Shown here: positions 15,917-63,354 of the stretch, piece by piece
Layout of the letters: each line of letters opens with the position of its first letter
Numbering within the stretch: the stretch's first letter is position 1
Assembly: GCA_963714095.1 (NCBI GenBank)
Contig: OY970230.1
Location: forward strand, 1,023,907-1,087,906
Reading direction: 5' to 3'
Source of the DNA: Candidatus Gottesmanbacteria bacterium
GTDB taxonomy: Bacteria; Patescibacteriota; Microgenomatia; UBA10105; UBA927
Length of the DNA: 64,000 nucleotides
The notes under the pieces: generated by a model
Databases searched by the model: none
What the model was told of the DNA's origin: nothing
The model's input: the letters and a program-made list of their open reading frames with translations, nothing else
Position numbers and translations under genes: made by a program

Positions 15917-16423
15917 ATGAAAACTGCTCGTGGTTTTACACTTATTGAACTGCTTATTGTTATTGCGCTTTTAGGTGCGCTTGCCATAGGACTCTTGGCG
16001 ACAATTGATCCGTTTGAACAGCTCAAAAAAGGCCGTGACACGTCAACCAGAAATACCGTGTCGGAATTTTATAATGCAAATTTGCGGTATTATTCCACCA
16101 AATCAGATTGGCCATGGACGTCTCTGGGTAGCGCGACACCTTTAGCCGATCCTATCATGTCTGATGCGGCGACGGGCGCGATTACGAAACTTATTAATGC
16201 CGGTGAATTAAAGGCAGGTTTTACCGGATATGTGGGAGCCGGAACGCTGTCGACCATCTATGTTTCATCGACAGGGCTGGGAGATCTGCATGTCTGTTAT
16301 ATGCCGGAATCCAAAGGGTTCCAGATCGACGCAAATACGATCTATGATCCAAGCGGCGGGACGAGTATAACCACCTGCAAAGCGACCGGTGGGACAGACC
16401 CCTGCTACTACTGCATTCAGTAA
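15917..16423 (+). CDS. Type IV major pilin (PilA-like)
   Basis: The N-terminus has the prepilin motif KTARGFTLIELLIVIALLG (G|FTLIE cleavage/methylation site). Four cysteines near the C-terminus could form the D-region disulfides. A strong SD (AAGGAG) lies 10 nt upstream of the start. Confidence 0.85.
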   Translation: MKTARGFTLIELLIVIALLGALAIGLLATIDPFEQLKKGRDTSTRNTVSEFYNANLRYYSTKSDWPWTSLGSATPLADPIMSDAATGAITKLINAGELKAGFTGYVGAGTLSTIYVSSTGLGDLHVCYMPESKGFQIDANTIYDPSGGTSITTCKATGGTDPCYYCIQ

Positions 16424-18439
16424 ATGGATAATCAAGCAAGAAATCGCAAAAACAGCAGTGTTTTTGCGATTCTTGTTGGTTGTATAGCATTTGTTTCTTT
16501 CCTCCTATTTCAGGCACAGGGCATTGTGGGCGGAGACTCAGGAGATGTGGTGACGGCCGCAGTCACCTTTGGTGTGGCGCACCCCCCTGGGTATCCCCTC
16601 TATACATTTCTTGGCTGGATTGTTTCCAGATTACCAATATTTACTGCTTCATGGCGGGTGGGACTCCTCTCTTCTGTGCCGCATGCAATTGTTATCGCAC
16701 TGGTCTACTGGCTTGTTTCTTCGCTCACGAAGCGCAGAGCCGTCGGATTATTCAGCGCATTGCTACTCCTTTCCAATTACCTGTTTTTTCTCTACAGCGT
16801 GACGCCGGAAGTATTCGCGCTGTTGGACTTGTTTGTTATTCTCCTTATCTGTCTTCTTATCCGCTGGCGACAGACTAAAAAAAATCGGTTTCTTGTTATC
16901 GCATCGTTTGTGTTTGGATTATCACTTGCCAATCAGCAGACTATATTGTTTTTGGTGCCGGCTTTGTTTTACTGGATTTGGCGGCAACGATTCCTTCTGC
17001 CAAAACAATCACAACGATTCCGTTTTTCTGTTGCGTTTTGGTTTTTGGTCGGGTTAGTTCCGTATGCGTACGTATTCATCGCGGCCCGCGGGCACTCAAT
17101 CATCAATTGGGACAGGCCCGTGGATCTCGCCGGTTTTATCCGTCTGATGACGCGGGCGGATTACGGCACGTTTGTGTCCGGCGGGTTATTTGGTGACCTG
17201 GTGATTCAGCGCTTTTTGCAGATTCAGGCCTACGCGCAGTTTATTCTTATGGATTTTACCTGGATTGGAGTTGTCCTTATCCTGACGGGGTTTTTCTCCC
17301 TGTGGAAGCGGGATCGGCCTCTTTGTCTATTCTTTTTGGTTGCACTGCTCTTTTTGGGCCCATTCTTTTTCTTTTATGCAAGTTTTCCTTTGCTTAACCG
17401 GTTTATGCTCGGCACGTATGAGCGGTTTTTATTGCCGTCGTATGTAGTGTTTGCCATTCTTTCCGGTATCGGGCTTGCAGAGCTGGTAGAACGCCTCAGG
17501 TCAGTCTTGAGCCGGCGCATGGCCCGTCTTGTTTTTGGGATCGGGTGTATTGTCATCCTCCTGTATCCGCTCAGCCAGTTGGGGGTCACTCTGTGGCGGT
17601 TTTACGGATTACCCGCAGACAGAACTGCAGATAATCTGGGTATGGATGTGCTTTCGCCGCTGCCTTCCGGCAGCATTCTGTTATTAGGCCGCGATATGAC
17701 GCTCTTTAGTACGCAATATATGCGCTATGCGCTCAATTTCCGGCCGGATGTCATTGCCATACACCAGAGCCGGTTGGCCTCCCCTGATTATCAGGTGACC
17801 CTCCACGCGATATTCCCCGATATCACATTTGCGGCAACCGGCGATGCAACGGTCAATCTCGTGACATCCCAGTACCCGAAGCGGCCGATATTTTCATATG
17901 CACCGCTCCCTGTCGGAGCAGGATGGAGCTGGGTGCCGTATGGGTTAACCTATAAATTAGTTGACCAAAAGACGGCGCCGAACGCAGGCACGATGTATAA
18001 AGAAAATCTTGCCATCTGGAAAACATTGCACGATCCTGCTACAGGAATTCTTTCACGGTACAATCACCTGATGCTTTCCGATGCCCGCGACGTATATGCG
18101 GGTGCGCATATTGCGCTTGGGAGGACGCTAGCGCTTGCCGGCATGCTGGACGAGGCATATGGCCAGTTTAGTGCGGCTGCCAAAATTGCGGGGGACGCAG
18201 AACTTGCAAATGCATATAAGGATGAGGGGGCGGTGTTGCTGCTTCAAAAAAAATGTACGGCTGCGCTCACCGCGTTTACTGCGGCACAAAACGCAAGTAT
18301 CGTACCGGATAGCATCATTACGTATTATGAGGCGAGTACGTACCGCGATTGCCTCGGCGATGCAGCACACGCGAAGAAGCTTTTTGACGAATATGACGCC
18401 GAGAATAAACAAACCCAAACACCATTAGGACAATTGTGA
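16424..18439 (+). CDS. DUF2723/TMEM260-like (PMT-like GT-C) membrane glycosyltransferase with C-terminal TPR repeats
   Basis: The protein has 11 or more TM helices. The first extracytoplasmic loop carries an acidic GDSGDVV motif and AHPPGYPLYTF. The C-terminal 150 aa are TPR-like. The family assignment was made from memory and is inference. Confidence 0.5.
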   Translation: MDNQARNRKNSSVFAILVGCIAFVSFLLFQAQGIVGGDSGDVVTAAVTFGVAHPPGYPLYTFLGWIVSRLPIFTASWRVGLLSSVPHAIVIALVYWLVSSLTKRRAVGLFSALLLLSNYLFFLYSVTPEVFALLDLFVILLICLLIRWRQTKKNRFLVIASFVFGLSLANQQTILFLVPALFYWIWRQRFLLPKQSQRFRFSVAFWFLVGLVPYAYVFIAARGHSIINWDRPVDLAGFIRLMTRADYGTFVSGGLFGDLVIQRFLQIQAYAQFILMDFTWIGVVLILTGFFSLWKRDRPLCLFFLVALLFLGPFFFFYASFPLLNRFMLGTYERFLLPSYVVFAILSGIGLAELVERLRSVLSRRMARLVFGIGCIVILLYPLSQLGVTLWRFYGLPADRTADNLGMDVLSPLPSGSILLLGRDMTLFSTQYMRYALNFRPDVIAIHQSRLASPDYQVTLHAIFPDITFAATGDATVNLVTSQYPKRPIFSYAPLPVGAGWSWVPYGLTYKLVDQKTAPNAGTMYKENLAIWKTLHDPATGILSRYNHLMLSDARDVYAGAHIALGRTLALAGMLDEAYGQFSAAAKIAGDAELANAYKDEGAVLLLQKKCTAALTAFTAAQNASIVPDSIITYYEASTYRDCLGDAAHAKKLFDEYDAENKQTQTPLGQL

Positions 18440-20564
18440 CGCCCAGGCAGATACCGCTTATCCATGCTCCATAAACAAAACTATCCGGCCAATACGTAAA
18501 TTCGATTGTATGAGGCCCCCTGGGCACGAGAATGCCGATGTTTTTGATATTTACCGGAAATATCGGCACAGCTTTCGTATCGATAGTTGCGTGCCAGCCG
18601 GGATAATATGTCTGGGTCAGGACCAGAATCGCGCGCGCGTTCGGGTTTGTGACGGAAATGACATATTGCCCTTCGTCTGACGATTTCACTGCTATCGTTC
18701 CACGGGTTAAGCTCGCTGCCGGTGTTGCGTCAAATTCAACAAGGATGGTATCACCGGGTACGAACGTGTCCGAGGTAAACGCCGCGACGGCATCCTCGAC
18801 GGTATGCACCGGAATCGCCCGTTTTGCAAAATAGACTGGCGGCAGCGGATCGGGATTTTCGAAGAGGCTGGTGGTATGTCCGGCAAACGATATGTGAGCC
18901 TTGAGAGACAATCCTTGCTGGGTCAGCGGCAGCGTGCTGATAACGGTTTTAACAGATAAAAGTGAAAGAAGTTTAATGCCCGTCGCGCTTATGGTGGCGT
19001 TGCTGCTGTCGAAGGTAATAGACTGGTTTAATAAATCCGTAAGCACTCCGGATCTGCGGATTGTTCGGGCTGCATCTTCCTCGATTTGAGGAACGCCCCA
19101 TACCATATTCTGATCAGGCGTCAGCGAATTTCGCAGAAATAGAGCAGGATCGTTTATCCCCCGAAGATTCAACCACCCATGAGGAGCATAGAATTCATTA
19201 TATGTTATTGGTGATCCGATGGTTATTGTATAGTGTGTGAGGTCGATAGAGTGGATGAGCGGCGGATTTTGTACCCATTCTGACGCAGGAACAAGTTTAT
19301 GGTACGGCGACCAGATGATAAACAGCGAGACCGTATGGATGCAAATAATGATGAGTGCAGCAGCAAAAATAATCCCGGATTTTTTCCCGTATCCCATCAG
19401 CCGGTCGAATGCGTGAACGGACAGAACTATAAGTGCGATTACAAAAAGCCAGATGAAGCGGGACGGCACGCGGAACAGGTTGAAGGGCCAAAATGAATAG
19501 ATAAGATAGAGCGGTGAATTGCTTCCGGTCATAAGAAGAAAGGATGCGCCCAAGACAAGGAGAAAAAAAAGTGTGGATTTGATCCGGAATTTTTTCCATA
19601 CCGCAATACTGGCATACACAGCAAGGAAAATCAGAGGAAGAATGCCGATATATGCGGTATTTTCCCAAAAAATGCTTCCGGAGAACACTGAAAAATTTGG
19701 GTAGGTGCCGGTTGCGGGATTGCCAAGGGCAAACGGGTTGATAAGCGTGAGAAGATGTTTGAACGGGTATGAATAATATGCGGCCTGATCGGGAGAAAAA
19801 CCCGTAGCAGTCACGAGCGTTTTTAAGTATTCCACCGACGGAAGTATTTGAGCGGCGGCGGCGGCACACCCGACCGTAATGGCAATAACGAACATGATTG
19901 TTTTTTGTTTCCAATCAACACCGGTACGCATAAGCCATATCCAGTACGCGCCGAGGAATAAGAGGGTAATAAATACGCACTGCGGGAATCCGACGAAAAT
20001 GAGTTGTGAAAGAAAGAGAATAAACCATCCGACGGCACACCACGATTTTTTATTCGCCAATATCAGCGTGAGGGCGGCAAGCCAGGGAAAAAGACAATAA
20101 CTCTGAACGATCGTTATGTGGGTAAGCTGGGCAATAATATAACCGGAAAGGACAGTTGTTATTGATCCGAAAACACAGGCAATGCGGCTGTAGTTCATGA
20201 GTCGCAGCCAGACATACATTCCCCACCCCATGATACAGAGAGTAAGGACCAGCGCTATATTGTATGCTGCAACCGGGTTAAGGATGCTAAATAAAATAAA
20301 ATTCGGTAAGAAAAAAGTTGACATTGAGCCGAACGCATATATCGGATATCCCCCGCCGATAAGTGACGTCCACAGTGGTATGCGGTGCTCGGAAAGTTGT
20401 GTGCTATAAAAGAATTTCGTTGAAATCGCAAGGACGGCGTCACTTTGTCCGAAGTCGGGTGTCACAATAAGCTGCGGCGTAGGCCAGAATAACCGGAAGA
20501 AAAAGGCGGTTACGACGATGGTGATAAGACCGACCGCACACATATCTTTCCATGTCCATTTCAT
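18318..20564 (-). CDS. YfhO-like polytopic membrane protein (GT-C-type glycosyltransferase family)
   Basis: The N-terminal half is multi-TM, followed by a large extracytoplasmic domain and a final TM. Architecture and size (748 aa) fit the YfhO family. Its 3' end overlaps the previous gene's 3' end by 122 nt in convergent orientation. Confidence 0.45.
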   Translation of the reverse strand: MKWTWKDMCAVGLITIVVTAFFFRLFWPTPQLIVTPDFGQSDAVLAISTKFFYSTQLSEHRIPLWTSLIGGGYPIYAFGSMSTFFLPNFILFSILNPVAAYNIALVLTLCIMGWGMYVWLRLMNYSRIACVFGSITTVLSGYIIAQLTHITIVQSYCLFPWLAALTLILANKKSWCAVGWFILFLSQLIFVGFPQCVFITLLFLGAYWIWLMRTGVDWKQKTIMFVIAITVGCAAAAAQILPSVEYLKTLVTATGFSPDQAAYYSYPFKHLLTLINPFALGNPATGTYPNFSVFSGSIFWENTAYIGILPLIFLAVYASIAVWKKFRIKSTLFFLLVLGASFLLMTGSNSPLYLIYSFWPFNLFRVPSRFIWLFVIALIVLSVHAFDRLMGYGKKSGIIFAAALIIICIHTVSLFIIWSPYHKLVPASEWVQNPPLIHSIDLTHYTITIGSPITYNEFYAPHGWLNLRGINDPALFLRNSLTPDQNMVWGVPQIEEDAARTIRRSGVLTDLLNQSITFDSSNATISATGIKLLSLLSVKTVISTLPLTQQGLSLKAHISFAGHTTSLFENPDPLPPVYFAKRAIPVHTVEDAVAAFTSDTFVPGDTILVEFDATPAASLTRGTIAVKSSDEGQYVISVTNPNARAILVLTQTYYPGWHATIDTKAVPIFPVNIKNIGILVPRGPHTIEFTYWPDSFVYGAWISGICLGVTIVLMVFGFVYSRRHIRQKASSRVLHRRGNRGTYSPHNT

Positions 20565-22277: not shown

Positions 22278-22766
22278 ATGGAGTCTTCTTCACAATCTCA
22301 CGGGTTTACCTTAATTGAGATTGTTGTGAGCGTCGCAATTCTAGCGCTCCTCAGCGGTCTTTTTATTGCCAATTATAACGGGTTCAGTAATTCTCAGACT
22401 GTCCAGCAGACTGCGTCGGACGTGATTGCAAACTTGCAGTCAGCCAGGACAATGGCATCCTCCGGTTTGAAACCAGCGGGGTGCAACACGCTCGTCGGTT
22501 ATATTGTAAATTTCTCTAATTCCTCCTATACAGTACAGGCGAGTTGCCAGTCAGGACTGGTCGGCGGGATAAATACGTATACGCTCCCGATGGGGGTAAC
22601 GTTTGCTTCCCCCACTCCCAACCCTATTACATTCTATGCTCTTGATGGCGGAGCATCGGCAAACCAGACAATATCTCTCGTCGGGAACGGAGTTACTGCA
22701 AAAGTATCGGTATCTTCTTCGGGGGTGGTATCGGATTTTATTCCGACGCCGACTCCGACGCCGTAA
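22278..22766 (+). CDS. Type IV minor pilin-like protein with C-terminal Pro-Thr repeat
   Basis: The N-terminus has SHGFTLIEIVVSVAILALL. The protein ends in FIPTPTPTP. Confidence 0.75.
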   Translation: MESSSQSHGFTLIEIVVSVAILALLSGLFIANYNGFSNSQTVQQTASDVIANLQSARTMASSGLKPAGCNTLVGYIVNFSNSSYTVQASCQSGLVGGINTYTLPMGVTFASPTPNPITFYALDGGASANQTISLVGNGVTAKVSVSSSGVVSDFIPTPTPTP

Positions 22767-27032: not shown

Positions 27033-27485
27033 CTATTTTCCAAACAAATACAGCCCTTTTGATTTGAAGTATTTTTTAACCTCTTTTGTTGTGAAGAAAT
27101 AGATATTGAATGCAGCTAAGCACAACCCAATAATTTTCGCGATAACATGAATTATATCTTGAGGGAAAGTAAGCATGAGGTAAACTAGGTGTAGTGAATT
27201 TAAAACTACCATTATCGGTACTAGCCACGGTTGTTTTGTTTTTAACCCCCAATAAAATGCAAAACACATTATTAATCCGGGAATCTGGAAAATAATACTG
27301 ATTAAGGGAGAAGGTGTTTTGGCGGGTGATCCGAAATTTAACAAATAAATTATAGCTAAAATTAATAGCAGCAATACAATAGATGTTACGAGATAGAGAT
27401 ACTTCAATACGTTTACTACAGTCTTAATATTTTTTTCTGATAATTTCATAGTTATACGTATATCACGCCATTTATGGGTGAACAA
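27033..27485 (-). CDS. Small polytopic membrane protein (hypothetical)
   Basis: The ORF has about 4 TM helices. Its composition is strikingly AT-rich relative to its neighbours. Confidence 0.4.
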   Translation of the reverse strand: MFTHKWRDIRITMKLSEKNIKTVVNVLKYLYLVTSIVLLLLILAIIYLLNFGSPAKTPSPLISIIFQIPGLIMCFAFYWGLKTKQPWLVPIMVVLNSLHLVYLMLTFPQDIIHVIAKIIGLCLAAFNIYFFTTKEVKKYFKSKGLYLFGK

Positions 27486-36185: not shown

Positions 36186-38777
36186 ATGTCTCTCTATGAC
36201 CGTTTTCGTAATCGGCAATTTCGTCGTCGGAGTTTTCGGATGACACGCAGTAATCTCCAGTTCATTACGACCATCGCCGTTGTCGGATTTTTTGTTGCAG
36301 TGGCAGCGGTTCTCTTTGTTGTTATTCTTTTTGCCTGGTATGCCAGGGATTTGCCCAGTCCCGATAAAGTGCAGCGGACAAGCGGATTATCCACGGTGAT
36401 TTTAGACCGCAACGGCGAAAGCCTGTATGACATTTACCAGAACGCAAACCGTATTCCGGTGCAGCTTTCGGATATCCCGAAATACTGCCAGGACGGGACG
36501 ATTGCCGTTGAAGATAAAACATTTTATACGCACCCCGGCATTTCGACAACCGGCATCATCCGCGCACTTATCTCGACCGTAGTCTTTCATAACGTCGAGG
36601 GAGGCTCGACCCTCACGCAGCAGCTGGTGAAAAATGTACTGTTGACCAATGAACAGACATTGCCACGGAAAATTAAGGAAGCAATCCTCGCCATACAAAT
36701 CGAGCGCAAATATACCAAAGACCAGATTTTGCAGATGTATTTAAACGAAGCGCCGTACGGCGGCACATCGGTGGGCATGGAAAGCGCCTCCCAGCTCTAC
36801 TTCGGCACGTCTGTAAAAGATTTAAATTTAACCCAATGTGCGATTTTGGCAGGGCTTCCCCAGGATCCCAGTAATTATTCCCCGTTTATCGGGACTCCGA
36901 AAGCATACGTGGGGCGGACCGAGATCGTTCTGCGGGCGATGCGTGACAACGGATATATCAGTGCGTCTCAGGAATCGGCGGCTGAAAAAGAAATTGCAGG
37001 GGTAACGTTTGCCTCCGACACGGGCGGGCTTCGTGCCCCCCATTTTGTCGCCTATGTGAAAGATCAGCTGGTGACAAAGTTCGGGGCTGCCACGGTGGAC
37101 GGCGGGGGGCTCAAGGTGACCACAACATTGGACTGGAAACTGCAGCAACAGGCACAAACCATTGTGAAGGAGGAAGTGGACAAAGCCAAATACTTGAGCG
37201 TGTCAAACGGGGCCGCGGTTGTCATTGATCCGGCAACCGGTGAAATTCTTGCCATGGTGGGGAGTAAAGATTACTCGGCTACGGACTCAAGTGGCTACAA
37301 GTTTAATGTGGTGACCCAGGGGCTCCGGCAGCCGGGATCATCGATTAAACCATTTACCTACGCGACGGCATTTAAAAAAGGCTATACTGCCGCAACACTT
37401 TTGATGGATGTGGACACGAAATACCCATCCGGAGATCCGACGAAGCCGGAGTATGAACCGAAAAATTATGACGGAAAATTCCGCGGCCCCATGCAGCTGC
37501 GGTATGCACTGGGTAACTCAATTAATACAATTGCAGTAAAAGTAAGTGCCTTGGTAGGAGTTAAAGATGTATTAACAACCGCTAATGATATGGGCATTTC
37601 TTCTCTTGCGCCGACTGATGACAATCTCAAACGGTTGGGATTATCCATGACTTTAGGCGGCGGTGAAGTAACACTCCTGGACCTTACGAGTGCCTACGGA
37701 GTCTTTGCAACAGAAGGCATGCGTATGGCCCCGGTATCAATACTCAAGGTTGAAGATAGGAACGGAAAAGTTTTGTATCAGTACAATCCCCCGACACCCG
37801 TGCGGGTAATTGCAGCGGATGTTTCATACATGATTTCCGATATACTTTCGGATAATGATGCACGGAAAGACGAATTCGGCTCAAATTCATACCTGTATGT
37901 TCCGGGTTTTACGGTTGCTGCTAAAACCGGCACGACGGACGACAAGCGCGATAATTGGACAATCGGTTACACGCCGTCGGTTGTCGTTGGCGCGTGGGTG
38001 GGTAATAACGACAATTCCCCGATGAACCAGGCGCTGGCATCCGGCATTACCGGCGCGGCGCCCATCTGGAACCGCATCATGCGCGCAGCCCTTAGTGGCA
38101 AAAAAGACGAACCGTTCGTCAGGCCAAGTGACATCATCGAAATGGATATTGATGCTTACGGCGGCGGCACGCCGGTCTCCGGGGAACCAACGCGGAAGGA
38201 GCGCTTTATCAAAGGCACGGAGCCTACAGGCCCTTCTCCTATCTATCAGAATATAAAAATATCGCGTCATGACAGCATAAAGCTTGCTAACCCCGTGGAG
38301 ATTACCAACGGGCAATATGACCTGAAGCCGTATATCGTTTTTTCGGAGCAGGACCCGGTGTCCTCGGACGGCAAAAACCGCTGGCAGGACGCCATTAACG
38401 CATGGATTGCGACTCAGGGGGATCCGAAATTCCACCCGCCGACCGACACCTACCAAGGGACGGATCAGATCGGTATGAACGTGCAGAGCCCGAAAGATAT
38501 GACACGGGTAAATAGTAATTCCGTCAACGTGCAGGTTGCGGTGACGACGCTCAACGGCCTGGATCGTGTGGAAATTTCCCTCGACGGGTCGATAGTGCAG
38601 ACCGTGCATGATAACAATGTGAACGTAACGATTACGGTGCCGAATGGCTCCCACATCATTCATCTGGAAGTTGTTGATTCAAAAGGAAATCATGCAAGTA
38701 ATGATCTGCATGTGGGAATTAATCAGGATTATTCGGCGCCGACGCCGACCGCTACGCCTACCCCTACTTCGCCTTAG
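36186..38777 (+). CDS. Class A penicillin-binding protein (PBP1A-type transglycosylase/transpeptidase) with C-terminal extension
   Basis: An N-terminal TM is followed by GT51 motifs (EDKTFYTHPGI, RKIKEAILAIQIERKYTKDQILQMYLN). The transpeptidase SxxK context is GSSIKP. A C-terminal domain of about 200 aa ends in the Pro/Thr-rich SAPTPTATPTPTSP. Confidence 0.85.
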   Translation: MSLYDRFRNRQFRRRSFRMTRSNLQFITTIAVVGFFVAVAAVLFVVILFAWYARDLPSPDKVQRTSGLSTVILDRNGESLYDIYQNANRIPVQLSDIPKYCQDGTIAVEDKTFYTHPGISTTGIIRALISTVVFHNVEGGSTLTQQLVKNVLLTNEQTLPRKIKEAILAIQIERKYTKDQILQMYLNEAPYGGTSVGMESASQLYFGTSVKDLNLTQCAILAGLPQDPSNYSPFIGTPKAYVGRTEIVLRAMRDNGYISASQESAAEKEIAGVTFASDTGGLRAPHFVAYVKDQLVTKFGAATVDGGGLKVTTTLDWKLQQQAQTIVKEEVDKAKYLSVSNGAAVVIDPATGEILAMVGSKDYSATDSSGYKFNVVTQGLRQPGSSIKPFTYATAFKKGYTAATLLMDVDTKYPSGDPTKPEYEPKNYDGKFRGPMQLRYALGNSINTIAVKVSALVGVKDVLTTANDMGISSLAPTDDNLKRLGLSMTLGGGEVTLLDLTSAYGVFATEGMRMAPVSILKVEDRNGKVLYQYNPPTPVRVIAADVSYMISDILSDNDARKDEFGSNSYLYVPGFTVAAKTGTTDDKRDNWTIGYTPSVVVGAWVGNNDNSPMNQALASGITGAAPIWNRIMRAALSGKKDEPFVRPSDIIEMDIDAYGGGTPVSGEPTRKERFIKGTEPTGPSPIYQNIKISRHDSIKLANPVEITNGQYDLKPYIVFSEQDPVSSDGKNRWQDAINAWIATQGDPKFHPPTDTYQGTDQIGMNVQSPKDMTRVNSNSVNVQVAVTTLNGLDRVEISLDGSIVQTVHDNNVNVTITVPNGSHIIHLEVVDSKGNHASNDLHVGINQDYSAPTPTATPTPTSP

Positions 38778-47897: not shown

Positions 47898-48620
47898 AAT
47901 AATAACAACACGTTAACTTTTATTACAAAAGGTGATGCTAATAACATCCCGGATATTGATCCGGTCTCTGTAGAGCAGATCAAAGGTAAAGTAATTTTTA
48001 TTATTCCCTATATCGGATATCTTTATCTTTGGATTAAACAACCTATCGGATTTTTACTTCTCATAATTACTCCGGCGCTGTATATCATCGTGAGTGAAAT
48101 TATCGTTGCAAAGAAACTTATCGAACGGGAGGCGATAAAAAAATACAATAAACAACATCCGGTTACACCGCACCTCATTATCATAGGTTTGTTGTCAATC
48201 GCCTTGAGTTTTCTCAGTGCCAAAAAAACTATTTCATATTTTTCATCCGGTCTTGTCTTGTCGGGCAACATTTTCTCGACAGGCAAGTGGTCTACCGATG
48301 ATCCTCCTGCTGCTGATGATCCGACCGCCATACTTACAATTTCCTCCGACGGGCATACGGCAACATTTACGGTCACAAATACGTCGTCATTTGACCAAAT
48401 TTCCTACACGTTGACATACGATACCGATACCAAAACGCAGGGTCTCATGGGAACCATAGCAATAAACGGCAACAATATCATAACCAAAGACGGACTGACG
48501 CTCGGAACGTGTTCAACAGGTGGTACGTGTACGTATGACACCGGTGTTAATAACGTTACGCTTAGTGTAGCCCTCACCAATAGTAAAGGTGAGACAAAAA
48601 ATTTAACTGCACATCCATGA
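47826..48620 (+). CDS. SipW-like (ER-type, S26B) signal peptidase C-terminal half fused to TM + extracellular beta-rich domain; catalytic Ser region absent
   Basis: The translation contains GDIISF...SVTHRVYEI...ITKGDANNIPDIDPVSVEQIKGKV, which covers the His and Asp boxes of SipW-type peptidases, followed by two TM segments and a Thr/Gly/Cys-rich domain. No SGSMEP box lies upstream in any frame. Confidence 0.45.
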   Translation: MKGDIISFETKSSASVTHRVYEIQNNNNTLTFITKGDANNIPDIDPVSVEQIKGKVIFIIPYIGYLYLWIKQPIGFLLLIITPALYIIVSEIIVAKKLIEREAIKKYNKQHPVTPHLIIIGLLSIALSFLSAKKTISYFSSGLVLSGNIFSTGKWSTDDPPAADDPTAILTISSDGHTATFTVTNTSSFDQISYTLTYDTDTKTQGLMGTIAINGNNIITKDGLTLGTCSTGGTCTYDTGVNNVTLSVALTNSKGETKNLTAHP

Positions 48621-49225
48621 AAAGAACACACAAAATGATACTGATGCTCTTCATAATATTCCCGTTCATGTCGGCAGGGTACGTCTATGCATCCGACTAC
48701 GACCGATTGGTTACCTGTTCTACAAAAACCTGTACGATTTCTTCAAACGATCCTTTATTTACGGAATTCAATTGGTCGCAGGGAGCAAGCGTTACAAAAA
48801 CAATCCGCGTAAAAAATATGCAAGCGACATCACTCCTTATTTATATCAGCGCCGACAAAAATAATTCCTCTTCAAATTTAGGAGATGTCATCGGAATGAA
48901 AATCATTGAGCAAAAAAATAGCATTGTGCGGCTGGATACAACGCTAACGCATTTTTTCAACACAGGATCAGTTGAACTAGGGGGTATAAATGGAAACGGG
49001 CAGGATGATTATAAATTTATCGCCGCGTTAGAAAATAATGCCGGTAATACATACCAAAATAAAAAAGTTGTATTTTCTCTTGCACTTAACTTTAGCGGTA
49101 TTCCCGTCAATACACCGATGCCTACGCCGACACCGACGCCCAAACCACCTCCACCCCTTCGACCGAACTTTAACTTTTGGTGGCTTCAGTATCTTCTGGA
49201 AAGACTTCGGGGACTCCGAAGATAA
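48617..49225 (+). CDS. Secreted TasA/camelysin-like (M73-like) protein candidate
   Basis: The signal peptide is MKRTHKMILMLFIIFPFMSAGYVYAS. The start overlaps the sipW-like stop (ATGA). The C-terminal KVVFSLALNFSG resembles the TasA-family terminal beta-strand. The C-terminus is PT-rich. The region is AT-rich. Confidence 0.35.
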   Translation: MKRTHKMILMLFIIFPFMSAGYVYASDYDRLVTCSTKTCTISSNDPLFTEFNWSQGASVTKTIRVKNMQATSLLIYISADKNNSSSNLGDVIGMKIIEQKNSIVRLDTTLTHFFNTGSVELGGINGNGQDDYKFIAALENNAGNTYQNKKVVFSLALNFSGIPVNTPMPTPTPTPKPPPPLRPNFNFWWLQYLLERLRGLRR

Positions 49226-50913: not shown

Positions 50914-51342
50914 TCAAAATCCCAGCGGCAGGGTAAGTACCGGCGGCGTCAGTGTCTGATCCTGGGTGGAGTTGGCCGTAACGGCTGCAGAAAGGGAGGC
51001 GACTGAGGATGAAAACTGCAGAAATGCGCTTTGGGTCGCAAGCGGCGAAAGCAGCTGTATGGGTGTGGGCGTCGGCTGAACCGGAGTGGGTGTCGGAACG
51101 GGCAGGGCGGGCGCGACGCGCGGTTTCATCATCAATAGACCGATGAGGCCAAGAAGGACAAGGACGCCTGCAATAAGCCCCCAGAGAAGTGTGGGCGGCA
51201 TCACGGATTTTTGCGCGGGCGCGGGCGGAGGAGCTGCTGCGGGTCCCGTCGTTGGCGGCGGCGGTGATCCCGTCATCAGGGGTGGCGTCGGTGCTGGTCC
51301 CGTCATCGGAGGCGGATTGATTGGTACGTTTTGTTCGTCCAT
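50914..51342 (-). CDS. Pro-rich bitopic membrane protein (hypothetical)
   Basis: An N-terminal Pro-rich cytoplasmic tail is followed by a single TM and a PT-rich exterior segment. Confidence 0.4.
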   Translation of the reverse strand: MDEQNVPINPPPMTGPAPTPPLMTGSPPPPTTGPAAAPPPAPAQKSVMPPTLLWGLIAGVLVLLGLIGLLMMKPRVAPALPVPTPTPVQPTPTPIQLLSPLATQSAFLQFSSSVASLSAAVTANSTQDQTLTPPVLTLPLGF

Positions 51343-56773: not shown

Positions 56774-57472
56774 TTGGCTTATTTATACGCCCTATTATGG
56801 TATAATTTCCGGGTGACCAGTATACAGGAAATAGGCATTTCACCGATATCACAGCGAACAGATTTTTTGCGAATACTCGATACCGTTTCGTTTTCGCAAC
56901 TTACCGGAGAGGATATCGAAGAAATTATTCCATGGAACCTTGATAAATATACGGTACGGGATTTCCGAACCTACCTGGGAAAAATAGTTTCGACATTCGG
57001 ACAGGGCTGGGGTGTTTTTTCAAATAATTTTACGGCTTTGGATATTTGCTGCGGCGGCTGTGGATATAAGAGTGAAGGATTTTATCCATGGTGGCCTGCA
57101 ATTCTTTCCCAACTCGGTGCTGATGTTACAGGAATCGATATCGGCGATCAGCCGAAGGAACTCACCGGTATGTATACCCACATACAGTATGATGTAACGG
57201 ACCTTTCGGTTGGGTTAACAGAGATACCGGAAATTGCTGAAAATAAATTTCATCTTATTACCTGCCTCAATACAATAAATCCGTATATATCGTCAGACGT
57301 CATGGTGGAAACCGCCTGGAATAAACGGAAAAATACATTTGACATGCAACATATATTGTTCCGCGATATAGATAAGCTTCTCGTAAACGGTGGTCTGGCA
57401 TTTGTCGACTCTCATGAAGCCTGGCAGCAAATGTTTAGGAAAACACGTGAAGGATTGATACAGTTGGATTAA
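56774..57472 (+). CDS. Methyltransferase-like protein, paralog A (motif I LDICCGGCG)
   Basis: ALDICCGGCGY...LGADVTGIDIGD...YTHIQYDVTDL are present. It shares collinear motifs with the gene at 62214. Confidence 0.45.
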   Translation: MAYLYALLWYNFRVTSIQEIGISPISQRTDFLRILDTVSFSQLTGEDIEEIIPWNLDKYTVRDFRTYLGKIVSTFGQGWGVFSNNFTALDICCGGCGYKSEGFYPWWPAILSQLGADVTGIDIGDQPKELTGMYTHIQYDVTDLSVGLTEIPEIAENKFHLITCLNTINPYISSDVMVETAWNKRKNTFDMQHILFRDIDKLLVNGGLAFVDSHEAWQQMFRKTREGLIQLD

Positions 57473-57480
57473 CTGACGAT

Positions 57481-59094
57481 TTATACAATTTCGTCTTTTT
57501 TCGTGCGGATGAAGCGGATCCACTCTTCCACTACCTCGAAGATTATCTTCAGCGGCGCTTCGAGGACGAAGTCAAAAATAAAAATGAATATGTTGAGGCG
57601 TGCTATTTCCTTGGATAAAAACTGCCCAGCCTGCAATACCGGCATAAGGAAGAAGTCCATAAACGGTTCCAGGAATCCCTGTCGCTCGATCATTTCATAT
57701 TCCTTTGCCGAATGGCGGATCCGGTAGGCAAAGAACGAAACAAGCGCCACGAAGAATACGAAAATAATCTTACTCGGAATACTGAATTGCAATGCAGAAA
57801 GCGCGATGTTAATGAGTCCGAATGTAATGGCAAATGTAGCAAAGTAGAAGAATGAAAACGCAACGGTGAGAATCGGCCGGTTGTCCTTTTGCCGTTCGAT
57901 AAACGTATCTTTTTCCTTCGCAACCGCGTCAAAATTATACAGGAGTTTATGGATGCGGTCGATGAGCCTCCGTGTATTATCTGCGCCTGGCACACTAAAG
58001 AGCCCCGCGACCAGAAAGAGCATGAGAGGAGGAAATAGTGTATTGATGATAAGAGGAATGGGAGCCAATTTTTTCATGATATAGATGTCATACGGTGCTT
58101 CCAGGGCAAATGCGAAGACCATTTTGGTGAGGAATATATAGATAAAACTGCGCACCATGGCACGACGCACTTTTCGCCCCGTTTCGTTATAGCGGTTAAT
58201 GGCAATCTGCGTCAGTTTTTCGTCAAGCTTTTTCGGGTCGTCGATATAACTTCGTACTTCCGGGCCGGTTTCGATAAAAAAATCTTTCAGTAAGAGAAAC
58301 GGGGGCACCTGCCGCCGTAAATAGCGGAATACCGGAGCAGTTAAGGGATGTGTCAGCGTCGCGCGGATCGACCGTGTTGCACTTAAGAATTGTGTAACGG
58401 TTGATGGCCCGGCTTCCTTCGTGTTGTTTAGCCAGTCCGGCAACAGGAGTGTTGTGAGGTGATAGGCGATAAGGGCATCATCTGACTGCATATATGCACG
58501 CTCCGAAGCGACGAGCGTAATAAGATTTGTCTCCTGTTCGGAAACACCCGTAAGTGATATCTTCGGGCGGTTTGCCTGGTAGAAAAAGTACAGCAGCGCC
58601 TGCCGCTTTCTGGCCGGGACAATAGATTCTTCTATTTCGCTTGATGCGATGCCCAAGACGTAGTCCCAGGGGACTGCGGCGTGACCGGCTGAGATTGCCT
58701 GTTTGATCGTCAGGTATTTGTCAATAATCAGGGTGATTTCAGTAATTTTGTCTTCATCTATGAACGAACTGTCAATATACTTTGCCCATAAAAGTTCAGT
58801 CACCAGATTTTCGGCAATTGATCCTGCGGCTCCGTTTAACAGAATACGCCGCTTGAGAATCCGTTCAATTGCCGCCCGGCGGATAAGATGTTCGGCGCGG
58901 AATTCTACGGCATTCCGTATTTTTTCAAAGACAACGGCAAGAGCGGAAACGGTGCGGCTTACGTTGTACCCCACGCCGCTTTTTCCCATAACTACTCCCT
59001 CAGAGTAGGTATTGATAAGATCCACTACGATCGGGGCGAGTTTTGGCTTCGTCATAGTCCGGCCGGTTACCTCAATTGCATCATTGTCGTTCAT
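57481..59094 (-). CDS. Large hypothetical membrane protein (soluble N-terminal ~330 aa + C-terminal multi-TM)
   Basis: The ORF is 537 aa with 6 or more C-terminal TM helices. No motif was recognised. Confidence 0.45.
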   Translation of the reverse strand: MNDNDAIEVTGRTMTKPKLAPIVVDLINTYSEGVVMGKSGVGYNVSRTVSALAVVFEKIRNAVEFRAEHLIRRAAIERILKRRILLNGAAGSIAENLVTELLWAKYIDSSFIDEDKITEITLIIDKYLTIKQAISAGHAAVPWDYVLGIASSEIEESIVPARKRQALLYFFYQANRPKISLTGVSEQETNLITLVASERAYMQSDDALIAYHLTTLLLPDWLNNTKEAGPSTVTQFLSATRSIRATLTHPLTAPVFRYLRRQVPPFLLLKDFFIETGPEVRSYIDDPKKLDEKLTQIAINRYNETGRKVRRAMVRSFIYIFLTKMVFAFALEAPYDIYIMKKLAPIPLIINTLFPPLMLFLVAGLFSVPGADNTRRLIDRIHKLLYNFDAVAKEKDTFIERQKDNRPILTVAFSFFYFATFAITFGLINIALSALQFSIPSKIIFVFFVALVSFFAYRIRHSAKEYEMIERQGFLEPFMDFFLMPVLQAGQFLSKEIARLNIFIFIFDFVLEAPLKIIFEVVEEWIRFIRTKKDEIV

Positions 59095-59244
59095 GGGACC
59101 TTTCTGGTAATAATTTCACTGTACACGTATAAGTATATCAGATTTTATGGTTTCTGGTCCTATTTGAACGCAGGCAATAGTTTTGCGGTAGAAGCTATGT
59201 GGTACAATTACATCCGAATTACATATATTTTTGTATGCATACAC

Positions 59245-60039
59245 ATGACTAAAATAATTGTTGTGATGCCGGCATATAATGCACAGCGGACATTAAAGCG
59301 GACTGTTGACGATATTCCCAAAGGGCTGGTGAGTGAAATCATTCTCGTTGATGATAAGAGCAGGGATTATACTGTTGATGAAGCAAAAAAATTAGGCTTA
59401 ACGGTCTATAAACACCGTCGGAACCGGGGGTATGGCGGTAACCAAAAAACGTGTTACAAAAAAGCATTGGAACATAATGCCGACATTGTTGTTATGCTCC
59501 ATCCGGATTACCAGTATGACAGCAGTCTGATAGGAGAACTTATTCGGCCGATTGTTCAGAAACGTGCAGATGTGATGTTCGGCAGTAGAGTCAGCAGCCG
59601 GGCGAAAGCTCTTGCAGGGGGAATGCCACGAACCAAATATTTTCTGAACCGTTTGTTTTGTATCCTCGAGAATGGTATTTTAGGCGTTAACTTTTCCGAA
59701 CACTTCAGCGGACTGCGTGCGTATAGCAAATCTGTTTTAAAAACTCTTCCCATAGAAAATTTTTCAGACGATTTCGTATTTGACCAGGAGTTTATGATTT
59801 CCGCCATAGCCTACGGGTATCACATAGGCGAAATATCCATTCCTATACGGTACTTTTCTGAAGCGTCATCGATTCACTTTCTGAAGGGAACAACATTTTT
59901 ATTAGGAACCATTCGGACACTTTCTGCATATCTTTTATATAGAACAAAAATGTACACGTCACCGGTATTTTTGTATCGAACGGATCGGACAAAAAAGGAG
60001 CATAACGCGCGGTTGCGCAATGACCATCATACAAGATAA
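59245..60039 (+). CDS. GT2 glycosyltransferase, polyprenol-phosphate mannose/glucose synthase (Ppm1/DPM1-like)
   Basis: The N-terminus reads MTKIIVVMPAYNAQRTL...EIILVDDKSRD. An acidic MLHPDYQYD segment and a C-terminal amphipathic/TM tail are present. The start was trimmed from the longer ORF at 58888. Confidence 0.7.
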   Translation: MTKIIVVMPAYNAQRTLKRTVDDIPKGLVSEIILVDDKSRDYTVDEAKKLGLTVYKHRRNRGYGGNQKTCYKKALEHNADIVVMLHPDYQYDSSLIGELIRPIVQKRADVMFGSRVSSRAKALAGGMPRTKYFLNRLFCILENGILGVNFSEHFSGLRAYSKSVLKTLPIENFSDDFVFDQEFMISAIAYGYHIGEISIPIRYFSEASSIHFLKGTTFLLGTIRTLSAYLLYRTKMYTSPVFLYRTDRTKKEHNARLRNDHHTR

Positions 60040-60064
60040 CGTGATATGCTAATACTCAAATCCG

Positions 60065-61699
60065 ATGAATACACGGACACGTTTCATTTTCTGGCGTAGC
60101 GCAGCAGTAGCGGTATGTCTGGTTTTTGTGTTTTTCCCGTGGCTCTATCTTCTTGCCGCCATCAATTCACACCTGCTTCTGTTCCGCAGTGCGGTATTTA
60201 ATTATCTTCTTATTATCATCTCTGCAATCGCTGCTGGTTTGTGCGCCAGCCGTATCCGGCATACGCTGACCCCGCACACCAAAAAGCTGATTCCTATCAT
60301 CCTTGGGGCAGCGGTTATTCTGTACGGATGTGCAATGTTCATCATTACGATGTACTGCTATACGCACTATATTTTTGAATCCGTTGATCTATCCCAGTAT
60401 CATTTATCCCTCTGGCAGCTTTCCCAGTTTAAGCTGCCGTATATCTGGGACATGCCCACAACACCTATCTGGCAGCAGCATTTTGAGCCGATTTTGTTTT
60501 TTATCGTCCCGATCTATTGGGTTATAAAAGACGCCGGGGTGCTGGTGGCAGTGCAGGCACTTGCGGTTTTAAGCGGTGCGTTGCCCCTGTATATGACTGC
60601 CCATTATCTGTGGAAGTCCAAGTACGCAGCCCTCGCGATCTCGTATGCGTATCTTGCGTTCGGCGGACTGCAGGTAGGGTTTGCCTACGGATTTCATCCC
60701 ATTATGTTTTTTCCGCCTCTCTTTTTTTGGCTGTATTACTGGTATTGCCGTCGAAATACATACCTGTATTTTCTGTTTGTCGTTTTGTGTCTCTTTGTGA
60801 AGGAAGAAATATCATTCATCATGATTTTTTGGGGAATGTATGTACTGCTGTTTAAAAAAGAAAAATTTTTAGGAGCAGTGACGGTTGCCATGGGATTTCT
60901 GTGGTACATCCTCTGTTTTCACATAATCTTCCCCTACTTCAGTCCCAAAGCAGGATTTGTGTATTGGGGCCAATATAATCAGGAGTACGGGACGGGCCTT
61001 GCGGGCATCCTCAAATTTGCCTTCCTTAACCCGCGGCAGTTTGTTACTACCCTTGTCACACCGTCGTATAAAATCGAGACATTCCTCTGTATTTTTGGCG
61101 CATTCGCTTTTCTCCCCTTCGTGTACCCTCCGAGTCTTCTTATAGTTCTGCCGTCGATTCTGGAAAAACTTCTGAGTTCCGGAATTGTGGCGTTAAACGG
61201 TACCCATTATTCGGCGGCGGTTTGGGGAGCAACCGTCATCGCATCACTTGAAGCGCTGCATTTCGTACGCGGTAAATCACGGGGCACGCTGCTCGGTAAC
61301 ACTGCTTTTTTGGGCACGTTTCTTTTCTACGTGGCGTTATTTTCCAATGTCCTCTATGGGTGCTCGACGTTTGCATTTTTTCCTCAGGGGAACATTATTC
61401 CCCCGCCGCAGGAAAATATACAATTGTTAAACGATGTTATCCGGCTCATTCCGGCCAATGCAACGGTCGGCGCGCAGTACCTCATTGCACCGCACATCCA
61501 TAAACCATTCGGACAGTTGACCCCGTGGCCGAACTATCTCAATGAACCGGATATTGTTATGTGGGACACGAAGCTGCCGCCCGTATTAGTGGAATGGACA
61601 ACTGTCACAAAAAATCTTCTGGCGCTGTCAAAAAATCCTGCGTATCAGTTAGTGGTTAACACGGACGGGATCATCGTTTTTGAAAAAATCCACCGCTGA
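60065..61699 (+). CDS. DUF2079-like polytopic membrane protein (putative GT-C glycosyltransferase)
   Basis: The protein is 544 aa with about 12 TM helices and extracytoplasmic loops. It sits immediately downstream of the GT2. The family assignment is inference. Confidence 0.45.
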   Translation: MNTRTRFIFWRSAAVAVCLVFVFFPWLYLLAAINSHLLLFRSAVFNYLLIIISAIAAGLCASRIRHTLTPHTKKLIPIILGAAVILYGCAMFIITMYCYTHYIFESVDLSQYHLSLWQLSQFKLPYIWDMPTTPIWQQHFEPILFFIVPIYWVIKDAGVLVAVQALAVLSGALPLYMTAHYLWKSKYAALAISYAYLAFGGLQVGFAYGFHPIMFFPPLFFWLYYWYCRRNTYLYFLFVVLCLFVKEEISFIMIFWGMYVLLFKKEKFLGAVTVAMGFLWYILCFHIIFPYFSPKAGFVYWGQYNQEYGTGLAGILKFAFLNPRQFVTTLVTPSYKIETFLCIFGAFAFLPFVYPPSLLIVLPSILEKLLSSGIVALNGTHYSAAVWGATVIASLEALHFVRGKSRGTLLGNTAFLGTFLFYVALFSNVLYGCSTFAFFPQGNIIPPPQENIQLLNDVIRLIPANATVGAQYLIAPHIHKPFGQLTPWPNYLNEPDIVMWDTKLPPVLVEWTTVTKNLLALSKNPAYQLVVNTDGIIVFEKIHR

Positions 61700-61713: not shown

Positions 61714-62097
61714 TTATTGGGTGAACCCGGCGTATACGAAACAGACGCCGATAATGAAAAATACGACCAATGCAGTTGTCCCGAGATTTTTATTTTTTCT
61801 GATCTTGGCAACGACGCCGGTCATGCGGTCCGCACAAAACAGGTTGACCACTCCGAGCACCAGAATCAACCAGCAAAAGAGAGACGTGGCGATATCCAAA
61901 CTTGTCGTCCAGCTGTTGTGAAACAGCAGAAGCACAATACCCAAAAGGACGTTTACGACGCCCTTAAACAAGATGGGCATCGTGTGCTCATACTGCCGGA
62001 GAACAGAGCTGAAGTTTTTCCTGTTAACGAGGAGTGCTGATGTCACGATAATAAGAATGAAACCTAAGAGTTTTGCAAGAACCGCTGAAGATATCAT
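61714..62097 (-). CDS. Small 4-TM membrane protein (hypothetical)
   Basis: The start was trimmed to MISSAVLAKLLGF. Confidence 0.4.
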   Translation of the reverse strand: MISSAVLAKLLGFILIIVTSALLVNRKNFSSVLRQYEHTMPILFKGVVNVLLGIVLLLFHNSWTTSLDIATSLFCWLILVLGVVNLFCADRMTGVVAKIRKNKNLGTTALVVFFIIGVCFVYAGFTQ

Positions 62098-62213
62098 ATG
62101 TGTTTCCTCCCCTATTTTCAGTGTTTCACAATGTGAGGAAGATGGCAAGTTGCTTGAATCTATGCACGACCCCCATTTTGTGTTATAGGATATTTTTGAT
62201 ATAATAGCCCCCT

Positions 62214-62795
62214 ATGATACGAAGAGAAATAGATGCTGTATCTTCAGCACGAAACATAGACGAGTTCGTACGGTCTATGCCAACTGTTGACACTGATTTA
62301 TTGCGCGCTGGCATGAATATTCAAAATGTTACGCGTCAACTCGGTTTCGGCAATGACTGGAGCAGACTTGCGGGTTTATCTATACTGGATCTGGGTTGTG
62401 GTTCCCGGCTCACCCCACGGTATTTGAATCCGGATGGTTGGCCTCCGTTTTTTTGTTTGCTCGCATCGAATTTAGGCGCGCATGTGACCGGCATAGATCT
62501 TCATGCGGCGGATAAACAGGATGCAAAGGTATATACCCATATACGCGCAGATTTAGTTGCAGCGGTCCACACGGATAGTCTGGAGAATATAGGACTTCCG
62601 ACTGGTTCATTCCATGTTGTTCACGCGGGATTGCTGACAAGTACCGATCCGCCTTCGGGAGATTTTATAGCGGCTCTTGAAAAACATCATCTTTCTGAAC
62701 AACAATTTAAAGATGAATTGCTTGGGTCGTTATCGCGCCTTCTTGTCCCGGGCGGTGTGTGGGTAGAAAACGGTGACTATAAGCAAATGAAGTAA
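62214..62795 (+). CDS. Methyltransferase-like protein, paralog B (motif I LDLGCGSR)
   Basis: SILDLGCGSR...GWPPFF...LGAHVTGIDLHA...YTHIRADL are present and collinear with the gene at 56774. Confidence 0.45.
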   Translation: MIRREIDAVSSARNIDEFVRSMPTVDTDLLRAGMNIQNVTRQLGFGNDWSRLAGLSILDLGCGSRLTPRYLNPDGWPPFFCLLASNLGAHVTGIDLHAADKQDAKVYTHIRADLVAAVHTDSLENIGLPTGSFHVVHAGLLTSTDPPSGDFIAALEKHHLSEQQFKDELLGSLSRLLVPGGVWVENGDYKQMK

Positions 62796-62802
62796 GGCGC
62801 GT

Positions 62803-63354
62803 TCAATGCACTCGGCAATTCGGCCAGATACTGCTTGCGCCGATTGAATACACGTAGGCGGCGGTCTGCGCCGCGTCTTCTGCATTCCATCTCAAAGCAC
62901 TGCTCGGGTCTTTTCCCATGAGATTTCGATATATTTGCCAGGTACGCGTATCAAACTGGAATAGGCCTGCGTAGGGGCCGTTTGTCGCGTCTGGGTTAAA
63001 TCCGGATTCACACAATGCCGTGTGCCTCAGAGCATTCGGGTCAACGCCGTATTGGCCGGAATATTTGTCTATAAACCCGTTTATCTGTTGAGAACTTGCG
63101 GTTGGGATCGTTTCCGGGATCGGTGAAGGTGTTGGTGTCGCGGTAGCGGTCGGATATATCGTCGGTGTTGGGGTCGCGGTCGCTTCTGCGGTCGGAGTCG
63201 CCGAAGGCGACGGCATGGGCGTTCGTGTGGGTGTGAGGGCGGGATGATCGACAGACTCTGCCCGAACGTTCGTCCGAGCGCTCACTGCGGCAAAAATCAG
63301 AAGCGTACTCACTCCCATCACCAAGCCTAGAAAAAAGAATACGAAAATTCTCAC
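62803..63354 (-). CDS. Secreted Rpf/transglycosylase-like (lysozyme-like) protein with PT-rich linker
   Basis: A signal peptide is followed by a 60-aa Pro/Thr/Ala linker. The C-terminal domain reads ALCESGFNPDATNGPYAGLFQF, the Transglycosylase-like/Rpf catalytic Glu context. Confidence 0.6.
   Translation of the reverse strand: MRIFVFFFLGLVMGVSTLLIFAAVSARTNVRAESVDHPALTPTRTPMPSPSATPTAEATATPTPTIYPTATATPTPSPIPETIPTASSQQINGFIDKYSGQYGVDPNALRHTALCESGFNPDATNGPYAGLFQFDTRTWQIYRNLMGKDPSSALRWNAEDAAQTAAYVYSIGASSIWPNCRVH

Follow-up and report, generated by a model that had tools for sequence, protein, structure and literature searches.

The stretch of DNA considered here, hereafter the window, comprises 64,000 nucleotides (nt) of contig OY970230.1 from Candidatus Gottesmanbacteria bacterium. 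Close to one end it carries a gene for a family 2 glycosyltransferase (GT2), followed on the same strand by a gene for a polytopic membrane protein of the DUF2079 family. We analyzed the two proteins, their relatives and the neighborhoods of those relatives in other genomes, with the following features at the locus.

59245-60039, + strand: GT2 glycosyltransferase of 264 amino acids (aa) with no transmembrane (TM) segment; predicted polyprenyl-phosphate monosaccharide synthase, which would make the donor.
60040-60064, + strand: intergenic spacer between the GT2 and DUF2079 genes, 25 nt, without a terminator-like hairpin.
60065-61699, + strand: DUF2079 polytopic membrane protein of 544 aa; predicted glycosyltransferase of the GT-C class, which would transfer a lipid-linked sugar to an extracytoplasmic acceptor.
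59200-59208, + strand: possible extended -10 promoter element (TGGTACAAT), picked out by eye.

The mechanical open reading frame (ORF) around the GT2 gene runs from 58888 to 60039 (+ strand) and overlaps the divergent gene 57481-59094 (- strand). The gene call on an identical public contig (L015, 5181-5975) starts at the ATG at 59245, and more than 100 GT2 homologues start at the same MxKIxVVMPAYN motif; because the two agree, ATG 59245 is assigned by sequence comparison as the true start. The possible promoter element is located 36 nt 5' of this start, within the 150-nt divergent intergenic region 59095-59244, and was not listed by a consensus promoter scan. Since the spacer between the GT2 and DUF2079 genes is short and has no terminator-like site, the two genes are probably co-transcribed. 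The initial annotation of this DNA, made by a model from the letters alone, had placed the genes 26 nt apart; the adjacency is as it described, and the spacing is one nucleotide less.

The GT2 protein matches PF00535 (Glycos_transf_2) over residues 6-167 with an E-value of 2.9e-21 (76.6 bits, cutoff 23.3). The best NCBIfam match was AglJ (1.2e-17, 64 bits, about 200 residues), followed by PpgS (1.4e-14, 54 bits, residues 5-205) and the haloarchaeal dolichyl-phosphate hexose transferase (2.2e-14, 53 bits, about 200 residues). The match to glucosyl-3-phosphoglycerate synthase (GpgS) was weaker (1.4e-9, 37 bits) and covered only the first 105-107 residues or so, and PgfS was also among the weak matches. 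At an E-value of 0.001 or below, the sole sequence match in the PDB was the dolichyl-phosphate mannose synthase (DPMS) of Pyrococcus (5mlz), in which the D-A-D-L-Q metal site is aligned with H86-P-D88-Y-Q90 of the GT2 protein. All 32 relatives compared share this HPDYQ motif, and the second Asp and the Gln of the D-x-D...Q pattern are kept. The AlphaFold (AF2) model of the protein (predicted local distance difference test score, pLDDT, 88) was matched by Foldseek with DPMS, GtrB, and ArnC, with root-mean-square deviations of 3.0-3.9 A. The highest hydropathy over 19 residues is only 1.16, and thus no TM segment is predicted; a conserved hydrophobic helix at residues 212-233, near the C-terminus of the model, could serve as an interface helix. 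In both sequence and fold the protein therefore resembles polyprenyl-phosphate sugar synthases, and it probably belongs to a Dpm1/AglJ/PpgS/GtrB/ArnC-like branch, in line with its initial description as a Dpm1/Ppm-like enzyme.

A search with the GT2 family yielded more than 8,000 matches; the best 120 were 59-83% identical to the window protein, and those with a named source were all from Microgenomates, in which the family is nearly ubiquitous. The best homologues of both the GT2 and the DUF2079 protein come from Microgenomates-type Patescibacteria (Levybacteria, Amesbacteria, Woesebacteria, and Gottesmanbacteria). A GT2 protein identical to that of the window is encoded on a contig of 1,088,247 bp. 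Several 'dolichol-phosphate mannosyltransferase' genes have already been reported for genomes of this radiation (PMC4736985, PMC6031116), and thus the GT2 gene itself is not new.

The product of the downstream gene matches PF09852 over residues 138-538 (E-value 1.1e-35, 124.1 bits, cutoff 28.2), so that its assignment to the DUF2079 type holds. Its AF2 model (pLDDT 87; predicted template-modelling score, pTM, 0.89) has about 13-15 membrane helices and a C-terminal alpha/beta domain at residues 449-544; the protein is polytopic, as had been said, and the 12 TM segments originally counted are an approximation. The top Foldseek match of the model was ArnT (5f15; E-value 2e-5, TM-score 0.43), followed by eukaryotic STT3, PglB, AglB, and ALG9. 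We aligned 41 diverse DUF2079 sequences, spanning Patescibacteria, Omnitrophota, and Lentisphaerota, and found that D108, W117, H139, H211, E247, Y304, and Y382 are each kept in at least 39 of them, D108 in 40. This Asp sits in the loop after the third helix (residues 75-100), and the positive charge of the loops 1-11 and 63-74 places the D108 loop outside the cell in the topology predicted from the sequence. D108 would then lie in the first outer loop, the usual site of the catalytic acid of GT-C enzymes, and is a candidate for the catalytic Asp. The evidence thus supports the prediction of a GT-C fold whose first outer loop carries a conserved Asp, which agrees with the early suggestion that the protein is a putative GT-C transferase.

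The DUF2079 family is large: when 1.84 billion cluster representatives were searched with its profile, 14,869 relatives had an E-value of 1e-3 or below, whereas a search with the subfamily of the window protein gave only 62 matches. Most of the relatives align from profile position 62-75 onward, and thus the first two helices are a subfamily-specific extension. Weak sequence matches connect DUF2079 with PMT_2, PMT, and PTPS_related proteins, and a profile scan of the window protein against the PMT and PMT_2 models of Pfam gave no match. Among ten relatives with long N-terminal extensions, four are fused to an LPG_synthase_TM domain (the flippase type of MprF) and one to a GT-C enzyme of the PTPS_related (GacL) type; one region also matches PMT_2. 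Another DUF2079 locus adjoins a PF03706 gene. The fusion proteins are:

P0334, P0346, P0419, P0430, and P0382: DUF2079 fused to MprF-type LPG_synthase_TM (some) or to a PTPS_related GT-C (one).

In metagenomic contigs, we examined 80 loci with GT2 relatives of 45-72% identity, using our own gene calls and defining a large polytopic protein as one of at least 380 aa with at least 4 predicted TM segments. Such proteins are found immediately upstream in 22 of 63 cases and immediately downstream in 21 of 68. Adjacent positions thus hold one in 43 of 131 cases, whereas at a distance of at least three genes the frequency falls to 18 of 225 (odds ratio 5.6, p=4.6e-9). When 55 of the polytopic neighbors were scanned with Pfam, 16 were PMT_2, 6 DUF2079, 5 PMT, 4 YfhO, 2 GT87, and 2 PTPS_related; these are at least six families of polytopic enzymes of the GT-C type that use lipid donors. 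The closest GT2 relatives (60-72% identity) adjoin PMT_2-like, YfhO-like or PTPS_related-like genes, and a relative in Woesebacteria shares an operon with a PMT gene. The small TM proteins near the GT2 relatives are not GtrA. This pattern is that expected of a donor synthase serving whichever GT-C enzyme the genome carries.

A canonical DUF2079 gene (Pfam E-value 2e-63) is present in six of the GT2-anchored loci, and in most of them it is located directly upstream of a gene for a 560-576-aa fusion of an S-adenosylmethionine-dependent methyltransferase (MT) with a GT2 domain. The GT2 domain of this Omnitrophota fusion is about 50% identical to the window protein, and the DUF2079 proteins linked with it are likewise from Omnitrophota. 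An overlap of the two genes is seen in L060, L066, and L084; they are 2 nt apart in L074, and in L042 and L040 they are separated by a 227-aa gene. In an Omnitrophota locus looked up from its DUF2079 gene (L107), they are 17 nt apart and are followed by a gene for a secreted 357-aa protein, pilB, and pilC. MT-GT2 fusions make up about 16 of the 80 GT2 relatives from metagenomes, and the loci with such fusions are:

L040-L043, L046, L048, L050, L058, L060-L062, L066, L070, L074, L084, and L107: MT-GT2 fusion genes.

The gene order in Omnitrophota is opposite to that in the window, and thus the juxtaposition of DUF2079 and GT2 genes arose independently; this recurrence supports a functional link at the level of the family. 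Together, the operons with GT2 and the fusions with the MprF-type flippase domain give indirect support, at the level of gene organization, for a lipid-phosphate-linked donor of DUF2079 proteins.

From these results we propose, with a probability of roughly 70%, that the pair consists of a polyprenyl-phosphate sugar synthase and a DUF2079 transferase of the GT-C class, forming a system of the multi-component transmembrane glycosylation type, and that the GT2 enzyme is probably shared with two further GT-C enzymes encoded in the type IV pilus locus of the window. Systems with one GT-A synthase and a GT-C enzyme have precedents (PMC8035078). Judging from homology and gene context, the GT2 enzyme, which has no TM segment, would act on the cytoplasmic side of the membrane, where it would load polyprenyl phosphate with a single sugar taken from a nucleotide sugar. 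The lipid-linked sugar would then be flipped to the outer face by a component that we did not find in the window. The DUF2079 enzyme would finally move the sugar, by means of D108, to an extracytoplasmic acceptor, as its fold, its conserved residues, and the gene linkage in the family suggest. We regard this synthase and GT-C reading as well supported. Because the GT2 family occurs almost throughout Microgenomates and elsewhere pairs with many GT-C families, the enzyme is probably a shared donor synthase, and it probably also feeds the enzymes of the pilus locus, where the relevant genes are as follows.

15917-16423, + strand: type IV pilin gene.
16424-18439, + strand: TMEM260-like (DUF2723)/PMT_2 GT-C (PF11028, E-value 8.8e-25; PF13231, 2.9e-8), probably a second user of the lipid-linked sugar.
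18318-20564, - strand: YfhO-like GT-C (PF09586, E-value 6.5e-16, C-terminal part only), probably a third user of the lipid-linked sugar.

The DUF2723/PMT-like and YfhO-like genes that had been described in the pilus locus are thus present. The two ORFs are convergent, and their 3' ends overlap by 122 nt (18318-18439).

Several results weigh against this proposal. In the GT2 protein, the usual DXD motif has His in place of its first Asp, and all NCBIfam matches fall far short of the equivalog cutoffs, the top three scoring 53-64 bits where the cutoffs are 325-375. The mycobacterial GpgS, which has a soluble acceptor, matches the fold of the GT2 protein with equally good E-values, and thus the fold alone cannot separate a lipid-phosphate from a soluble-phosphate acceptor. 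For the DUF2079 protein, the TM-scores to solved GT-C structures are low, about 0.36-0.43. A search of a literature library gave nothing functional on the family: DUF2079 is named in none of its papers and PF09852 in one, which is unrelated, and we know of no DUF2079 protein with an established enzyme activity. Neither a flippase of the GtrA, Wzx or PF03706 type nor a nucleotide-sugar gene was detected in the Pfam scan of the window ORFs, which represent about 6% of the genome; the initial claim of a complete pathway is therefore not borne out. Furthermore, we searched about 20 loci anchored on DUF2079, including the closest relatives (40-59% identity), by tblastn and a hidden Markov model of the family, and except for the contig of the window itself none has such a GT2 gene within 5-8 kb. 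A conserved adjacency among the closest DUF2079 relatives is accordingly rejected, and within Patescibacteria the arrangement in the window is lineage-specific.

If the pair works as proposed, the acceptor of the DUF2079 enzyme has to be considered. The same biochemistry may serve a non-protein acceptor, such as peptidoglycan, a secondary cell-wall polymer or a membrane glycolipid, or may extend a glycan begun by another GT-C enzyme; we consider this a serious possibility, if somewhat short of an even chance, and Ser and Thr in the Pro/Thr-rich tracts of exported proteins are no likelier an acceptor than a glycan of the cell wall, peptidoglycan, a glycolipid or a sugar that another GT-C has attached. 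Parallels are the action of CsbB/YfhO on lipoteichoic acid, of GacI/GacL on rhamnan, of PpgS/Rv3779 on arabinogalactan, and elongation of the ALG9 type, and ALG9 is itself among the fold matches of DUF2079. Of the bacterial GT2/GT-C systems that have been characterized, most act on glycopolymers or lipids (PMC8035078). The genomic contexts of DUF2079 across the family are mixed. A distant DUF2079 gene (L106) lies in a surface-polysaccharide cluster with GT4 genes, DegT, PMT_2, and Wzy_C, and another is in tandem with PMT_2; together with the PTPS_related (GacL-type) fusion, such tandem GT-C genes suggest sequential additions of sugars. Around the DUF2079 gene of a Firmicute isolate there are no glycosylation genes. 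In two other Microgenomates (L017 and L019), either DUF2079 or a GT2 gene with a PMT_2-like gene lies in the same gap, which separates the isoleucyl-tRNA synthetase gene from ftsZ-ftsA-murG-ftsW, and this position is also consistent with a cell-wall acceptor. Against a non-protein acceptor, the scanned window ORFs yielded no genes for the synthesis of glycopolymers, and glycopolymer pathways are generally scarce in the roughly 1-Mb genomes of this group.

The three-step logic of a GT-A synthase of the lipid-linked sugar, a flippase, and a GT-C enzyme is the same in the CsbB/GtcA/YfhO, GtlA/GtlB, and GacI-GacJ/GacK/GacL systems (PMC8035078). In such systems one synthase can serve more than one GT-C enzyme, and a soluble GT-A enzyme may need a small membrane partner (PMC8035078). 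The acceptors there are teichoic acids or rhamnan, the GT-C family differs from DUF2079, and the systems include a GtrA or Wzx flippase, unlike the scanned ORFs of the window. In mycobacteria, PpgS (Rv3631) and Rv3779, a short GT2 and a distant polytopic transferase, add galactosamine to arabinogalactan, a polymer that to our knowledge is absent from this organism. PpgS (NF058614) is the second-best NCBIfam match of the window GT2, but the 54 bits compare with an equivalog cutoff of 370. The best structural matches are found among the ArnC/ArnT, DPMS, and ALG/STT3-type systems, namely, ArnC, DPMS, and GtrB for the GT2 protein and ArnT, STT3/PglB, and ALG9 for the DUF2079 protein; however, the identity is only 10-21%, no membership at the sequence level was found, and the TM-scores on the GT-C side are about 0.4.

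The initial annotation suggested a protein O-glycosylation toolkit; in full, this reading would have the DUF2079 enzyme itself glycosylate Ser and Thr in Pro/Thr-rich tracts of pilins, PBP1A, an Rpf-like protein, and other exported proteins. This protein O-glycosylation is plausible, and we regard Ser/Thr residues of such tracts as a possible acceptor of DUF2079 rather than a probable one. Pro/Thr tracts are present in five proteins that had been named, which are candidate acceptors only:

22278-22766, + strand: type IV pilin-like protein whose C-terminus carries the tail IPTPTPTP (nt 22740-22763).
36186-38777, + strand: class A penicillin-binding protein (PBP1A; Pfam Transgly and Transpeptidase) with the C-terminal tract APTPTATPTPTSP (nt 38736-38774).
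48617-49225, + strand: signal-peptide protein with the tract NTPMPTPTPTPKPPP (nt 49109-49153).
50914-51342, - strand: single-pass membrane protein with the tract PTPTPVQPTPTP after the TM segment (nt 51061-51096).
62803-63354, - strand: SLT/Rpf-like transglycosylase, secreted, in which a P/T/A/S linker spans about 50 aa (approximately nt 63091-63246).

The linker of the last protein is thus about 50 aa rather than the 60 stated before. All five tracts are on proteins with an N-terminal signal or a membrane anchor, as protein glycosylation outside the cell would lead one to expect. However, the association is not significant in the window (tracts in 5 of 31 anchored against 0 of 31 other proteins, Fisher p=0.053), five tracts in 62 proteins being too few for statistics.

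Strong experimental precedent for a protein acceptor comes from streptococci, in which a GtrB-type GT2 and a YfhO-type GT-C (PgtC2, PgfM1) glycosylate disordered, Ser/Thr-rich regions of proteins outside the cytoplasm, among them the tail at the C-terminus of PBP1a (PMC12041528). As proposed for the window, in the GtrB/PgtC2 and PgfS/PgfM1 systems the GT2 enzyme makes an undecaprenyl-phosphate sugar and the GT-C enzyme transfers it outside the cell (PMC12041528). The proven protein-modifying GT-C there is, however, of the YfhO type and not DUF2079 (PMC12041528), and the window has its own YfhO-like gene. Furthermore, streptococcal GtrB has C-terminal TM helices, which the window GT2 lacks, and the streptococcal tracts are poly-Ser/Thr, whereas the candidate tracts of the window are Pro/Thr-rich.

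In the actinobacterial Ppm1/Pmt O-mannosylation, the catalytic domain of the synthase has no TM segment, and the sugar is added to Pro/Thr-rich regions of secreted proteins, Rpf-type enzymes among them. The transferase of that system is PMT (GT39), and PMT-type GT-C enzymes are proven protein-modifying enzymes, whereas the window DUF2079 protein has no PMT or PMT_2 match in Pfam and the PMT_2/TMEM260-like protein is encoded by the separate gene 16424-18439. It is this gene, and not DUF2079, that abuts a pilin gene, as it starts one base after the stop of 15917-16423. The arrangement resembles that of pilA and tfpW/tfpO in Pseudomonas, and the pilin-abutting enzyme gives the best hint within the window of protein (pilin) glycosylation. 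The DUF2079 profile is unrelated to this protein (hhalign probability 13%). Thus, the families with a precedent match the other two GT-C genes of the window, nothing in the sequence ties DUF2079 itself to protein acceptors, and the distant DUF2079 gene in the polysaccharide cluster points away from them.

Two observations on gene context favor a protein acceptor. One is the Omnitrophota locus with DUF2079 and MT-GT2 genes directly upstream of pilB and pilC. The other is that there are no polysaccharide or teichoic acid genes around the pair. The initial annotation had noted that its reading would weaken if the GT2 gene belonged to a cell-wall polysaccharide cluster; since the neighbors of the pair are housekeeping or unknown genes, the GT2 gene is not inside a teichoic acid, rhamnan or other polysaccharide cluster. 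An extension of the protein reading, in which DUF2079 would represent a new family of O-glycosyltransferases for pilins or Pro/Thr tracts in the ultra-small Patescibacteria and Omnitrophota, with the Omnitrophota donor coming from MT-GT2 and possibly being a methylated sugar, seems to us unlikely.

It is very improbable that the adjacency is coincidental, with the GT2 protein acting on a soluble acceptor in the manner of GpgS and MpgS or on a cytoplasmic glycan, and DUF2079 taking its donor from elsewhere or not being a glycosyltransferase: GpgS structures are the top Foldseek matches of the GT2 protein by a small margin, the protein has no TM segment, and the closest DUF2079 relatives do not have the adjacency, but NCBIfam favors the polyprenyl-phosphate enzymes (64, 54, and 53 bits over about 200 residues) over GpgS (37 bits over about 105), GT-C neighbors are strongly enriched around GT2 relatives, operons of DUF2079 and GT2 recur independently, and polyprenyl-phosphate synthases without TM segments are known, for example, GacI with GacJ (PMC8035078).

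If the proposed system of a polyprenyl-phosphate sugar synthase and a DUF2079 transferase is correct, the large DUF2079 family acquires its first testable function, that of a GT-C enzyme fed by a Dpm1-like GT2. What is new here is modest, namely, comparative evidence that gives a role to an uncharacterized family; the logic of such systems is well known from Firmicutes, actinobacteria, and archaea, and thus our results extend existing knowledge rather than overturn it. The window holds three GT-C genes within its 64 kb, which suggests that a notable share of the genes in bacterial genomes as small as about 1 Mb goes into surface decoration from a single lipid-linked sugar. This bears on how the pilus and the cell wall are built in these mostly host-dependent cells.

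Among the other genes of the window, the 4-TM proteins 61714-62148 and 27033-27485 and other membrane ORFs were considered as flippase candidates and gave no GtrA, Wzx or PF03706 match. The first of these (- strand) is convergent with the DUF2079 gene and is of GtrA/GacJ-like size and shape without a family match; the protein is not conserved near GT2 or DUF2079 genes elsewhere. On the other side, 57481-59094 (- strand), divergent from the GT2 gene over the 150-nt gap, encodes a protein of 537 aa in which roughly the first 310 residues are soluble and the C-terminal part has at least five TM segments. As a conserved partner it was rejected: it has no Pfam or NCBIfam match, is unlike the polytopic neighbors of GT2 and DUF2079 elsewhere, and no homologue was found next to GT2 relatives in other genomes.

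The GT2 and DUF2079 genes are bracketed by two paralogues with 26% identity, 56774-57472 and 62214-62795 (both + strand), the second of which weakly resembles class-I methyltransferases. Neither matches the MT domain of the Omnitrophota GT2 fusions, and they are therefore not counted in the system. The rest of the window is housekeeping in nature, with genes for gyrase, a proton-pumping pyrophosphatase, tRNA synthetases, RecG, PBP1A, and trigger factor in addition to the type IV pilus locus, and at its start (9-671, + strand) there is a gene for a recombinase of the phage integrase family.

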